DNA of 64,000 bases from Escherichia coli. GTDB lineage: Bacteria > Pseudomonadota > Gammaproteobacteria > Enterobacterales > Enterobacteriaceae. The translations under genes and the position numbers were made by a program. Below the pieces are notes generated by a model that did not search any database, was not told where the DNA came from, and saw only the letters and a list, made by a program, of their open reading frames with translations. Location: NCBI RefSeq assembly GCF_013315695.1, contig NZ_CP054356.1, one strand, 5' to 3'. Below, one piece after another: positions 17,774 through 23,752 of this stretch; position 1 is the stretch's first letter; every line of letters starts with the position of its first letter.

Positions 17774-18300
17774 TTATGCCTTTTCCGGGCGTCCCCCTGG
17801 CGGGGCGGGCTGTCGTGAACGGAGCCAGCGGAGCTGTCTCCGCCCTGGCGGGCTTCCATCCCTGACGCAAAAACCCGGGTTTGCAGCGACCGGAACGGTC
17901 GCGCCACCCTTGTCGCGCCGTGGCCTGCGCTCCCGGCATCCCGGCAAAAGACGCCGGGATGTAAGGAGCAACGCTGTTTCGCAAACCGCGCTTCACGTCG
18001 TTGCGGCGGGTCCCTGCCCGTTGTTCTGTCCGGTGCCATTCACCTGTTTAAGCCCCTGTCGCCGGGGGCTGATACAGCCACAACCTGCCGCACTGACTGT
18101 CCAGGGTAAATGAACAGCCCACAAAATTTTTTACCCAAAACCCGGTAAAAAATTTTGCGTTCTGCCCAGGACAGGTGCGTCAGGCCGTGGCAGTGATGCC
18201 CCATGCGGCGAAGGTTCTCAAACAGGTGATGGTGAATACCGGAGGGAACAAAAGGCAGGTCCCCGCAAAACGTCAAAACCGCGGCTCCCGAAACTCAACA
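17774..18300 (+). repeat. Leading-region structured repeat, family B copy 2 (Frpo/ssi-like), upstream of ssb
   Basis: Near-identical to 14491-15025 and 23191-23740. Confidence 0.6.
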
Positions 18301-18340
18301 GATGATGGGGGCTGAAAACATCAACAGAAGGAGACACATC

Positions 18341-18868
18341 ATGGCAGTTCGTGGCATTAACAAGGTCATTCTTGTCGGTCGTCTGGGAAAAGATCCGGAA
18401 GTCCGTTACATCCCCAACGGGGGCGCAGTGGCAAACCTGCAGGTGGCCACGTCAGAAACCTGGCGCGACAAACAGACGGGGGAAATGAAGGAGCAGACGG
18501 AATGGCACCGCGTGGTGCTGTTCGGCAAGCTCGCGGAAGTGGCAGGTGAATATCTGCGTAAGGGGGCGCAGGTCTACATTGAAGGCCAGCTTCGCACCCG
18601 TAGCTGGGAAGATAACGGTATTACCCGTTACGTCACCGAAATCCTTGTTAAAACCACGGGCACCATGCAGATGCTGGGGAGTGCACCACAGCAGAACGCT
18701 CAGGTGCAACCGCAGCCTCAGCAGAATGGTCAGTCACAGAGTGCTGACGCGACGAAAAAAGGGAGCGCGAAAACGAAAGGCCGTGGACGTAAGGCTGCGC
18801 AGCCGGAGCCTCAGCCGCAACCACCGGAGGGGGAGGATTACGGGTTTTCAGACGATATCCCGTTCTGA
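18341..18868 (+). CDS. ssb: Plasmid single-stranded DNA-binding protein SSB
   Basis: [23 protein letters not shown].. OB-fold N-terminus and acidic C-terminal tail DDIPF; track ORF extended to upstream ATG 18302. Confidence 0.95.
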
Positions 18869-18919
18869 CTGGCCTGACTGTGATAACCGCCCCGTCCTGC
18901 GCGGGGCATCACCGGAGAT

Positions 18920-19159
18920 ATGAGGATGAGCGAATATTTCAGAATACTTCAGGGACTGCCTGACGGTCCTTTTACCCGCAAACAGGCCGAAGCCGTTGCC
19001 GCACAGTACCGGAACGTCTTTATCGAGGATGACCACGGCGAACAGTTTCGCCTGGTTGTCCGTAATAACGGAACAATGGTCTGGCGTACCTGGAATTTTG
19101 AGGACGGTGCCGGGTACTGGATGAACCATGTCATCCGTGATTTCGGGATCCTTAAGTAA
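18920..19159 (+). CDS. Hypothetical small protein downstream of ssb (YubL-like position)
   Basis: 79 aa ORF in ssb-psiB operon interval. Confidence 0.5.
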
Positions 19160-19219
19160 GAGAGGTGCCGGACGGGGATCACGTCCGGCAGACATTAACT
19201 ACACAATAAGGGGATAGTC

Positions 19220-21184
19220 ATGTCAGTAACAAAGTCTGAACCAAAATCTACCCGTAAAGCAAGCCGTAAACCTGCAAAAACGCAGGAAACTGTCCTGTCT
19301 GCCCTGCTGGCGCAGACGGAGGAAGTGAGCGTGCCGCTGGCCTCGCTGATTAAGTCACCACTGAATGTGCGCACGGTGCCGTATTCTGCGGAGTCCGTCA
19401 GCGAACTGGCTGATTCCATTAAGGGGGTCGGCCTGCTGCAGAATCTGGTTGTTCATGCCCTGCCAGGTGACCGCCACGGTGTCGCCGCAGGTGGTCGCCG
19501 ACTGGCAGCACTCAACATGCTGGCAGAGCGTGGCATCATTCCGGCTGACTGGCCTGTCCGCGTGAAAATTATTCCGCAGGAACTGGCGACGGCCGCATCG
19601 ATGACCGAGAACGGTCATCGTCGGGATATGCACCCAGCCGAACAGATTGCCGGATTCTGTGCAATGGCGCAGGAAGGCAAAACACCTGCACAAATCGGTG
19701 ATTTGCTGGGCTATTCACCCCGCCACGTTCAGCGAATGCTGAAACTGGCTGACCTTGCGCCTGTCATCCTCGATGCGCTGGCAGAAGACCTCATCACCAC
19801 CGAGCACTGTCAGGCGCTGGCGCTGGAGAACGACACCGCGCGTCAGGTGCAGGTGTTTGAAGCCGCCTGTCAGTCGGGATGGGGCGGTAAACCGGAAGTA
19901 CAGACCATTCGTCGTCTGGTGACCGAAAGTGAAGTGGCGGTGGCAGGGAACAGTAAATTCCGCTTCGTGGGGGCTGATGCCTTCTCGCCAGATGAACTGC
20001 GCACTGACCTGTTCAGCGACGACGAGGGTGGCTATGTGGACTGCGTGGCGCTCGATGCCGCCCTGCTGGAAAAACTCCAGGCTGTTGCTGAACACCTTCG
20101 GGAAGCCGAAGGCTGGGGATGGTGCGCCGGACGCATGGAGCCTGTCGGTGAGTGCCGTGAGGATGCCGGAACATACCGCTGTCTGCCGGAGCCGGAAGCG
20201 GTGCTGACGGAGGCGGAAGAAGAACGTCTGAACGAACTGATGACGCGTTACGACGCGCTGGAAAACCAGTGTGAGGAATCTGACCTGCTGGAAGCAGAAA
20301 TGAAGCTGATGCGCTGCATGGCGAAGGTCAGGGCGTGGACGCCGGAGATGCGTGCCGGAAGCGGTGTGGTGGTGTCCTGGCGTTATGGCAACGTGTGTGT
20401 CCAGCGTGGTGTGCAGTTGCGCAGCGAGGATGATGCGGCTGACGACGCTGACCGCACGGAACAGGTGCAGGAGAAAGCGCCCGTGGAGGAAATCAGTCTG
20501 CCACTGCTGACGAAAATGTCTTCCGAACGCACGCTGGCAGTCCAGGCAGCACTGATGCAGCAACCGGACAAATCCCTGGCACTGCTGGCATGGACGCTCT
20601 GCCTGAATGTGTTTGGCAGCGGAGCGTACAGTAAACCAGCACAAATCAGCCTGGAATGTAAACATTATTCGCTGACCAGCGATGCGCCATCGGGGAAGGA
20701 CGGTGCCGCATTCCTGGCGCTGATGGCAGAAAAAGCCCGTCTTGCAGCCCTGTTACCGGAGGGATGGTCACGGGATATGACGACGTTCCTGTCACTCAGC
20801 CAGGAGGTACTGTTATCCCTGCTCAGTTTCTGCACCGCGTGCAGCATCCACGGCGTTCAGACCCGCGAGCATGGTCACACGTCACGCAGTCCGCTGGACT
20901 CGCTGGAGAGCGCTATCGGATTCCACATGCGCGACTGGTGGCAGCCGACGAAAGCAAACTTCTTCGGACACCTGCAAAAGCCGCAGATTATCGATGCCCT
21001 GAATGATGCCGGACTGTCCGGTGCTGCGCGGGACGCGGAGAAAATGAAGAAAGGCGATGCCGCTGAACATGCAGAGTTCCACATGAAAGACAACCGCTGG
21101 GTGCCTGGCTGGATGTGTACACCACGTCCACAGGCAGAGACGGAAACCACGGAGTACCGTGACGACCAGGCAGAAGCCGCCTGA
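19220..21184 (+). CDS. ParB-like nuclease domain protein (leading-region ParB/Srx homolog)
   Basis: 654 aa; N-terminal ParB-type region (..GLLQNLVVH.. GGRRLAALN..); conserved position between ssb and psiB. Confidence 0.7.
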
Positions 21185-21252
21185 CCGCCAGTCATAAACC
21201 ATTTATCACGCCGCCCTGCCGGAGACGGGGCGGCAGCAAGGGAGATACCGTG

Positions 21253-21687
21253 ATGAAAACTGAACTGACCCTGAATGTATTACAGACCATGAGCGCACAG
21301 GAATATGAAGATATCCGGGCTGCCGGAAGTGATGAACGTCGTGAACTCACACATGCCGTGATGCGGGAGCTGGATGCGCCGGATAACTGGACGATGAACG
21401 GCGAGTATGGCAGCGAGTTCGGCGGCTTTTTCCCCGTCCAGGTCCGTTTCACGCCTGCCCACGAACGTTTTCACCTGGCGTTATGTTCACCGGGCGATGT
21501 CTCTCAGGTCTGGGTGCTGGTTCTGGTGAATGCCGGTGGTGAGCCGTTTGCGGTGGTTCAGGTACAGCGGCGGTTTGCACCGGAAGCCGTCAGCCATTCA
21601 CTGGCACTGGCGGCGTCACTGGACGCGCAGGGGTACAGCGTCAGTGACATCATCCATATCCTGATGGCGGAAGGAGGTCAGGCATGA
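21253..21687 (+). CDS. psiB: Plasmid SOS inhibition protein PsiB
   Basis: [40 protein letters not shown].. matches recalled PsiB; ATG at 21253 (track starts at GTG 21250). Confidence 0.95.
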
Positions 21688-22559: not shown

Positions 22560-22640
22560 TGTGTGGCAGAAAGAAGATAGCCCCGTAGTAAGTTAATTTT
22601 CATTAACCACCACGAGGCATCCCTATGTCTAGTCCACATC
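22560..22640 (-). ncRNA. Putative sok/flmB-type antisense RNA (approximate)
   Basis: Inferred from hok/mok architecture: antisense to mok leader; boundaries not determined. Confidence 0.3.
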
Positions 22641-22837
22641 AGGATAGCCTCTTACCGCGCTTTGCGCAAGGAGAAGAAGGCCATGAAACTACCACGAAGT
22701 TCCCTTGTCTGGTGTGTGTTGATCGTGTGTCTCACACTGTTGATATTCACTTATCTGACACGAAAATCGCTGTGCGAGATTCGTTACAGAGACGGACACA
22801 GGGAGGTGGCGGCTTTCATGGCTTACGAATCCGGTAA
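22625..22837 (+). CDS. mok: mok-like modulator-of-killing reading frame overlapping hok
   Basis: 70-aa ORF overlapping the hok frame, as in hok/sok and flm loci. Confidence 0.6.
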
Positions 22838-22841
22838 GTAG
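22683..22841 (+). CDS. hok: Hok/Gef-family membrane toxin (FlmA/Hok-like), 52 aa; below ORF-track size cut-off
   Basis: Translation [52 protein letters not shown] matches recalled Hok; TAG stop at 22839-22841. Confidence 0.92.
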
Positions 22842-22850
22842 CAACCTGGA

Positions 22851-22872
22851 GGCGGGCGCAGGCCCGCCTTTT
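22851..22872 (+). terminator. Rho-independent terminator of hok mRNA
   Basis: GGCGGGCGCAGGCCCGCC hairpin followed by TTTT. Confidence 0.7.
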
Positions 22873-23190
22873 CAGGGCTGATGCTGGTCTGACTGCACTG
22901 AAGCGCCTTTATAAAGGGGCTGCTGGTTCGCCGGTGGCCCCTTTCTCCTTGCTGGCATTGTACGGGCATGAACAACCAGACTGCCAGGAAGGCCGTTTCC
23001 CTCCGGGAACGGGGATGAACGTGCGCCTGCGGCGCCCGTTCTTTTCCCCCGCCTTCTCTGTTTATGACTTACCAGAAATCACATCACCTTCCCTTTGATT
23101 ATTCTCTTTTTCCTCCTGCTCTGACTCTGATTACTGCTCTGACTCTGATTACTGCTGCCCTGATTATTGTCTGTTTTGTTGTTCTCCTGC

Positions 23191-23740
23191 TTATGCCTTT
23201 TCCGGGCGTCCCCCTGGCGGGGCGGGCTGTCGTGAACGGAGCCAGCGAAGCTGTCTCCGCCCTGGCGGGCTTCCATCCCTGACGCAAAACCCCCGGCTTG
23301 CAGCGACTGTTCCGGTCGCGCCGCCTCTGTCGCGCCGTGGCCTGCGCTCCTGGCATCCCGGCAAAAGGCCGCCGGGATGTAAGGCGCAACGCCGTTTCGC
23401 AAACCGCGCTTCACGTCGTTGCGGCGGGTCCCTGCCCGTTGTTGTGTCCGGTGCCATTCACCTGTTTAAGCCCTGTCGCCGGGGCTGATAGTTGATACAA
23501 CCTGCCGCACTGACTGTCCGGTAAAATGAACAGCCCACAAAATTTTTTACCCAAAACCCGGTAAAAATTTTGCGTTCTGCTCCAGACAGGTGCGTCAGGC
23601 CGTGGCAGGTGATGCCCCTGCGGCGAAGGTTCTCAAACAGGTGATGGTGAATACCGGAGGAACAAAAGGCAGGTCCCCGCAAAACGTCAAAACCGCGGCT
23701 CCCGAAACTCAACAGATGATGGGGGCTGAAAACATCAGAT
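23191..23740 (+). repeat. Leading-region structured repeat, family B copy 3 (Frpo/ssi-like)
   Basis: Near-identical to copies 1 and 2; 3' end shares the ssb leader sequence up to about 10 nt before the RBS. Confidence 0.6.
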
Positions 23741-23752
23741 ACAGGAGGAATT

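Follow-up and report, generated by a model that had tools for sequence, protein, structure and literature searches.

The window analysed here is a stretch of 64,000 nucleotides (nt) from an Escherichia coli contig (NZ_CP054356.1; RefSeq assembly GCF_013315695.1), and our subject is the sequence repeated within it upstream of ssb and of a 98-amino-acid (aa) open reading frame (ORF), which very probably belongs to the Frpo family of promoters first named in the F plasmid. The window is the leading region of an IncF plasmid. Megablast against plasmids returned >5,000 records, chiefly conjugative IncF plasmids of Escherichia, Klebsiella and Salmonella, and a 99.7% identical plasmid record is typed IncFIA/IncFIC with a MOBF relaxase. 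According to the annotation of that record, an antirestriction gene is followed by a first copy of the repeat with genes for a hypothetical 76-aa protein, a DUF3560 protein and an S-adenosylmethionine (SAM) methyltransferase; then by a second copy with ssb, DUF905, a ParB-like gene, psiB, (psiA) and hok/sok; and then by a third copy with the hypothetical 98-aa protein and a DUF932 gene. Beyond these come an SLT transglycosylase gene on the minus strand and traM, traJ, traY, traA and the remaining tra genes, of which traM, traJ and traY are on the plus strand. The features on which the argument depends are as follows, with SD denoting a Shine–Dalgarno sequence.

14443–15040, minus strand: copy 1, assigned below to the class-1 elements, with a hairpin at ~14694–15011; F has no separate counterpart of this copy
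17726–18323, minus strand: copy 2, the full ~600-nt unit upstream of ssb and by homology the equivalent of Frpo2 (ssp1b); its functional strand would be the transferred strand
17976–18294, minus strand: the imperfect ~320-nt hairpin of copy 2, with its loop at 18136–18143 and an A+T-rich stem formed by 18122–18135 and 18144–18157
18295–18323, plus strand: shared tail 3′ of the hairpin base, CTCAACAGATGATGGGGGCTGAAAACATCA, identical in copies 2 and 3
18341–18868, plus strand: ssb, 175 aa (NF010292, 386 bits), 84% identical to F Ssb
23143–23737, minus strand: copy 3, by homology the equivalent of Frpo1 (ssp1a), ~2.1–2.7 kb from nic and the first copy that would enter the recipient
23394–23708, minus strand: the hairpin of copy 3, −86.1 kcal/mol
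23753–24049, plus strand: the 98-aa ORF, with its SD at 23743–23748, in the slot of ygeA in F
24160–24981, plus strand: DUF932 gene, ygeB orthologue, 273 aa, 97% identical to F YgeB
25873–25884, minus strand: F-type nick-region motif of the origin of transfer (oriT), GGGTGTGGTGCT, an exact and single occurrence, with nic inside GTGT/GG

The initial annotation had claimed that ssb and the 98-aa ORF are preceded by an identical promoter-leader reaching to ~10 nt before the ribosome-binding site. Alignment of 18100–18400 directly with 23520–23820, together with a repeat finder, confirms the identity: 18245–18323 and 23659–23737 match at 100% over 79 nt, and the longer segments 18124–18323 and 23539–23737 are near-identical in the same alignment, with few indels and substitutions. 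The shared leader thus stands, but its limit has to be moved, as the identity runs closer to the genes and is lost only 4–5 nt before the SD and 15–17 nt before the ATG. In both copies alike it terminates at ...GGGGGCTGAAAACATCA (...GCTGAAAACATCA); past this point the ssb side reads ACAGAAGGAGACACATCATG, with the SD at 18328–18333 and the ATG at 18341, and the side of the 98-aa ORF reads GATACAGGAGGAATTATG, with the ATG at 23753. The shared segment itself is real, although the interval first given for it was too short, since the similarity covers ~600 nt and occurs in three copies. Over the full unit, 17726–18323 and 23143–23737 differ at 45 of 552 aligned columns (~92% identity), and the repeat finder returned the third, more divergent copy at 14443–15040. 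An exact match of 79 nt within a ~600-nt repeat of 92% identity is far beyond chance.

The shared tail (18295–18323) is presumably part of both mRNA leaders. An upstream ATG at 18302, in frame with ssb, was considered as the start of a longer ssb or of a shared ORF and was rejected, as it has no SD and in copy 3 the frame stops after 18 codons; the start of ssb is the ATG at 18341, neither 18342 nor 18302. Directly upstream of each repeat lie pyrimidine-rich (CT) variable tandem tracts, for example of TACTGC or TTCTTC units (14400–14485, 17683–17760 and 23100–23185), which differ in length among copies and among plasmids.

The orientation of the repeats can be read against the nick motif, which sits in a typical TTTGCGTGGGGTGTGGTGCTTTTGGTGGTGAGAACCACC context. 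When F is transferred, the strand that is nicked goes into the recipient with its 5′ end leading. As the motif is on the minus strand and the tra genes on the plus strand, it is the minus strand that is transferred (T-strand); the leading region is accordingly at lower coordinates, and its plus-strand genes have the T-strand as their template. All three copies and their genes do lie at lower coordinates than the motif, with the genes on the plus strand.

As single-stranded DNA, the minus strands of copies 1, 2 and 3 fold (DNA parameters) into hairpins of 319–323 nt with −101.5, −105.7 and −86.1 kcal/mol, respectively, in agreement with the 328-nt stem-loop published for Frpo. The minimum free energy has a z-score of about −8 against dinucleotide shuffles, none of which was equally stable. 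In every copy the minus-strand fold is better than the plus-strand fold by 9–12 kcal/mol (9.7 for copy 2), and among the conserved pairs, several that are G.T on the minus strand would be A.C mismatches in plus-sense RNA. Both observations point to the T-strand, not the mRNA, as the species that folds. One arm of the hairpin is formed by the left half of the repeat, so the ‘B’ half, which the initial annotation had taken for the promoter-leader, cannot act alone. On the plus-sense upstream side of every hairpin, outside the 320 nt, we noted a conserved G+C-rich module of ~200–240 nt with several small hairpins (14486–14692, 17769–17973 and 23186–23392); it is common to F Frpo1 and Frpo2 and is found in part in the ColIb-P9 ssi and Salmonella ‘Frpo*’ sequences.

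Covariation was assessed in eight F-type sequences, namely the three window copies, the two F copies, one Serratia sequence and two from insect metagenomes, the last three taken from Samuel 2024. In the consensus hairpin of 91 pairs, 93.9% of the cells are paired, versus 38–49% when the partners are slid by 1–3 columns. Compensatory double changes occur at 12 pairs, and at most one of 500 column shuffles (0–1) reached the observed values.

In the F plasmid (NC_002483), two regions can be aligned with all three copies over ~580 nt, one preceding ssb and the other preceding a 95-aa gene and a DUF932 gene. Over 346 columns of the hairpin region, copy 2 has 18 differences from F Frpo2 and 50 from F Frpo1. 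Frpo1 is reportedly the ssiD/Frpo element of Masai and Arai 1997. The names Frpo1, for the element upstream of ygeA–ygeB, and Frpo2, for that upstream of ssb–yfjA–yfjB–psiB–psiA, are those of Couturier et al. 2023 (PMC9849209), and the window repeat, once reverse-complemented, corresponds to the F ssiD sequence as published (D90178; Samuel 2024, supplementary file 4). We are therefore highly confident, from sequence comparison, that the repeat is the class-1 single-stranded-DNA promoter (Frpo/ssi, ssiD, ssp1), present in three copies on this IncF plasmid and working by the hairpin mechanism proposed below. Homology, position and orientation identify copy 3 as the putative ssp1a/Frpo1 and copy 2 as the putative ssp1b/Frpo2. 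The element is already known, and the near-identity of the two F copies has itself been published. Searched against plasmid records, the hairpin core (17973–18295) is found at 13,395 sites, spread over at least 5,000 records, or ~2.7 per record, and in nearly all of them it carries no annotation (‘none’).

The experiments on the F and IncI1 homologues bear directly on function. In these, a hairpin on the entering single strand reconstitutes promoter boxes for host RNA polymerase. When Frpo1 or Frpo2 is deleted, transconjugants no longer produce YgeA, Ssb and YfjA at the early stage, and conversion to duplex turns the promoters off (PMC9849209). RNA sequencing of transconjugants with 5′ rapid amplification of cDNA ends confirmed the class-1 promoters in pESBL and showed that in F the Frpo1 and Frpo2 operons are induced (PMC12672017); in vivo, the ssp1a and ssp1b transcripts are also starting points for complementary-strand synthesis, with rifampicin-sensitive early conversion downstream (bioRxiv 2026.01.09.698686). 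The proposal of the initial annotation that the 98-aa ORF and the DUF932-like gene are co-regulated with ssb as early genes is supported by this homology, as the F homologues have been shown experimentally to behave in this way. By analogy, we infer that all three copies are active, and likewise where their transcripts start.

The sequence of events that we propose is as follows. During conjugation, the minus strand would enter the recipient 5′ first, from nic at ~25880, and on arrival each ~320-nt inverted repeat would fold back into a long imperfect hairpin. The stem would imitate a duplex promoter, allowing host sigma-70 RNA polymerase to start on the still single-stranded plasmid and to transcribe the T-strand toward higher coordinates. 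Copy 3 would thereby express the 98-aa ORF and DUF932/ygeB; copy 2 would express ssb, the ParB-like gene, psiB and psiA; and copy 1 would express the 76-aa ORF, the DUF3560 gene and the methyltransferase gene. The transcripts could additionally prime complementary-strand synthesis, and the resulting duplex conversion would remove the hairpin and silence the promoters, leaving an early transient burst. On this scheme, the repeat would stop 15–17 nt before the start codons because this is the junction of a conserved promoter module with gene-specific ribosome-binding sites. The present analysis supplies the repeat, the homology with Frpo1 and Frpo2, the orientation to nic, the hairpin, its covariation, the strand bias of the fold and the lack of a duplex promoter motif, whilst polymerase recognition, single-strand specificity, zygotic induction and priming are taken from the literature.

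The least satisfactory part of this scheme is the location of the promoter boxes. The best linear −35/−10 candidate on the T-strand, judged from the sequence, lies near the base of the hairpin.

18271–18276, minus strand: candidate −35 TTGACG of copy 2, near the hairpin base, paired with TTTTGT at 18248–18253 at 17-nt spacing
23685–23690, minus strand: equivalent TTGACG of copy 3
14988–14993, minus strand: equivalent TTGACG of copy 1

Two observations favour it: TTGAC does not vary among the eight F-type copies, whereas elsewhere the stem shows variation with compensating changes, and the candidate −10, TTTTGT, has its first two T opposite mismatches. Other possible placements are TTGTGG-17-GACAGT after the A+T-rich top, and CAAAAT near the loop; the good −10 of the class-2 element (TAAGAT/TACGAT), which is on the 3′ arm, would favour a loop-proximal promoter reading toward the base. 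A position-weight-matrix scan of the transferred strand of 11 class-1 sequences found no placement of the boxes that combined a high score with conservation in both F-type and ColIb-type elements.

Several points weigh against our interpretation and should be set beside the evidence for it. There is no convincing −35/−10 pair, as the best linear candidate, TTGACG-17-TTTTGT, scores modestly and has no A at −10 position 2. The part of the hairpin that holds TTGACG is without its partner, the basal left arm, in a Frpo2-acrIIA4 construct that was reported to be functional, and the candidate is absent from the ColIb-P9 ssi sequences, with which only the loop-proximal core is common. The covariation set is small, at eight sequences, and its members are related. 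Lastly, copy 1 is followed by a 217-nt leader with an antisense RNA, and its candidate −10 is unlike that of copies 2 and 3; we are less sure of its activity than of theirs.

If the initial annotation is taken literally, the repeat would be a conventional duplex sigma-70 promoter with its 5′ untranslated region, duplicated before two operons. That the identity extends to the ribosome-binding sites, and that a TTGACG hexamer lies within the repeat, is what such a duplication would look like. However, a search for sigma-70-type promoters (TTGACA- and TATAAT-like hexamers 16–18 bp apart) found no site on either strand of 17500–18400 or 22900–23800, TTGACG is on the minus strand and in duplex would face away from the genes, and Frpo and ssi are reported to be inactive as duplex DNA. 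Moreover, conservation takes in an inverted repeat of 320 nt with compensatory changes, a feature that a linear promoter would not require. We regard a duplex promoter as very unlikely; the promoter claim was right in substance, with the correction that the promoter would be a hairpin on single-stranded DNA. A hairpin could also operate in RNA, as a structured leader (an attenuator, or a stability or translation element) of both mRNAs, with the promoter further upstream. The inverted repeat does fold on both strands, reaching −77 to −96 kcal/mol in plus sense, and read-through from the upstream operons on the same strand is possible. Against this stand the greater stability of the minus-strand fold and the conserved G.T pairs described above, as well as the effect of Frpo deletion, which removes expression and does not deregulate it. 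Nor does any Rfam family match the region: over 8000–28000 the only hits were traJ_5, FinP, sok and AS-pc01, none of them inside the repeats. An RNA-level role thus seems as improbable as a duplex promoter.

It could further be argued that the repeats are chiefly scars of recombination or of mobile elements that shuffled the modules of the leading region, with no role in expression. The F copy of Frpo2 appears to be a chimera, with its left part like copy 1 and its right part like copy 2, the gene after Frpo1 varies among plasmids, and the loss of 9.7 kb between Frpo repeats has been described for an IncI plasmid (PMC3817090). Recombination between repeats, however, follows from their presence and does not amount to a function of another kind; the repeats come with no terminal inverted repeats, target duplications or transposase, their orientation to nic is strictly kept, and the stem has evolved by compensation. 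Of the explanations considered, this is the one to which we give hardly any credence. A single-stranded promoter remains the reading that we adopt, and the rearrangements are discussed next as events that the repeats may have permitted.

At the DNA level, the window and F cease to be homologous at ...GCTGAAAAC, and homology returns at the stop codon of the first ORF (23753–24049 in the window, 12033–12320 at the F locus). BLASTP gave no alignment of the 98-aa protein with the 95-aa F YgeA at E ≤ 100. The comparison indicates that the 98-aa ORF is an alternative cassette in the ygeA slot and not a YgeA homologue. Both cassettes are common: 1,797 plasmid records contain a member of the 98-aa family, and 3,033 contain one of the YgeA family. 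The 98-aa protein has 117 homologues, all annotated ‘hypothetical’ and all from enterobacterial plasmids; it has no NCBIfam hit, and in Pfam only a chance-level match to ApoLp-III (E = 0.016). Its AlphaFold model is a three-helix bundle with a predicted local distance difference test score of 82, for which the best Foldseek hits in the PDB were generic helical bundles at E ≥ 0.75. The position of the gene in a variable slot that would be expressed first makes its product a candidate early-acting factor. Loss of YgeA lowers F transfer ~25-fold; should the 98-aa protein serve as its functional alternative, it would represent a new factor in establishment or anti-defence.

The chimeric nature of F Frpo2 is apparent when F locus 6255–6602 is compared with 14672–15017 and 17955–18300 of the window. 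Its left arm has 4 differences in 55 columns from copy 1 versus 13 in 56 from copy 2, whereas its right arm and tail have 1 in 55 and 1 in 46 from copy 2 versus 21 in 55 and 10 in 46 from copy 1. The switch lies inside a central block of 145 columns that is near-identical in all three sequences. The upstream flank is also like copy 1, and arm positions that co-vary within copies 1 and 2 are mismatched in F Frpo2, with a weaker hairpin of −84.6 kcal/mol. F Frpo2 therefore looks like a chimera of copy 1 and copy 2. The simplest reading of these comparisons is that an ancestor of F lost the module of 76-aa, DUF3560 and methyltransferase genes by recombination between the two copies, an event comparable to the loss in the IncI plasmid mentioned above. 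The repeats may in addition provide fixed ‘docking’ homology for swapping or dropping whole modules of early genes, a suggestion that we consider plausible, if a little short of probable; the sharp end of the repeat before the start codon, the variable first slot and the scar in F Frpo2 all fit it. Between psiA and copy 3 lie a sok antitoxin RNA (Rfam RF01794) and a hok-family toxin (22509–22685). In F, hok/sok is likewise found between the two repeats, where it has been suggested to protect that segment from deletion.

The genes that follow copy 1, and that F would have lost, are:

15257–15487: the 76-aa ORF downstream of copy 1
15539–16900: the DUF3560 gene of the copy-1 operon
16947–17510: the SAM methyltransferase gene of the copy-1 operon

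Between copy 1 and the 76-aa ORF, Rfam places AS-pc01 (RF02875, ‘Antisense to pHK01_035’; 79.4 bits) on the minus strand at 15161–15262, and a terminator-like hairpin and T-run are present on the minus strand at this locus. The antisense RNA could modulate the copy-1 operon.

Two further candidates for single-stranded promoters were seen in the window. The region 12800–13206, upstream of an ArdB/KlcA-like antirestriction gene (13207–13632), folds on the minus strand and has ...CCTTGCAACC...CCCGGCTACGATGGAGGCACGGCACAGCCCGC, close to the published class-2 element (ssp2, ‘Frpo3’). A second repeat family consists of two copies of 95–97% identity, one at 8978–9293 before a DUF1281 gene (9298) and the other at 10284–10598 before a DNA methylase gene (10623). 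Both form minus-strand hairpins of about −97 kcal/mol and are probably the ‘class 3’ single-stranded promoter described upstream of an M.EcoGIX homologue.

The class-1 element is of interest in that it times the SOS-inhibition, anti-restriction and other establishment genes of resistance plasmids, a role documented for F and IncI1, and in that it is almost never annotated despite its occurrence at >13,000 places in plasmid records. The arrangement of three copies in this plasmid, of which F is apparently a deletion derivative, adds to this, and the analysis yielded two lesser side results, the exchange of cassettes and the apparent chimeric origin of F Frpo2.

The closest known system is that of F itself. 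With F Frpo1 (ssiD, ssp1a) and Frpo2 (ssp1b), the window copies share the sequence family, the positions of the genes, the orientation to oriT, the ~320-nt hairpin, the presence of hok/sok between copies and the ~92% identity between copies. The window plasmid differs in having a third copy with an operon of its own (76-aa ORF, DUF3560 and methyltransferase), and in that the first gene after the Frpo1 equivalent encodes the 98-aa protein, unrelated to the YgeA of F. The IncI1 class-1 elements ssi1–ssi3 of ColIb-P9 and pESBL (Bates 1999; Nasim 2004; Wen 2025) are likewise three dispersed copies in the leading region, each heading an early operon, and have the loop-proximal core CTGTCCGGGGGC...CGCAAAATTTTTT...AAAAATTTTGTGG...CCCTGGAC in common with the window repeats. 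However, the listed ColIb sequences do not have the basal third of the hairpin, with its TTGACG, in common with the window repeats, and the gene content of the operons differs. Class 2 (ssp2, ‘Frpo3’) and class 3 of F and pESBL resemble the repeat in principle and orientation, and the window holds candidates for both; they have no sequence similarity to the class-1 repeat, and class 2 is also a replication roadblock. More distantly, the single-strand origins (sso) of rolling-circle plasmids and the hairpin promoters of phage N4 are alike in that folded single-stranded DNA is used by RNA polymerase to make a primer or transcript, whilst they differ from Frpo in their sequences, in their polymerases or sigma requirements, and in their biological context.

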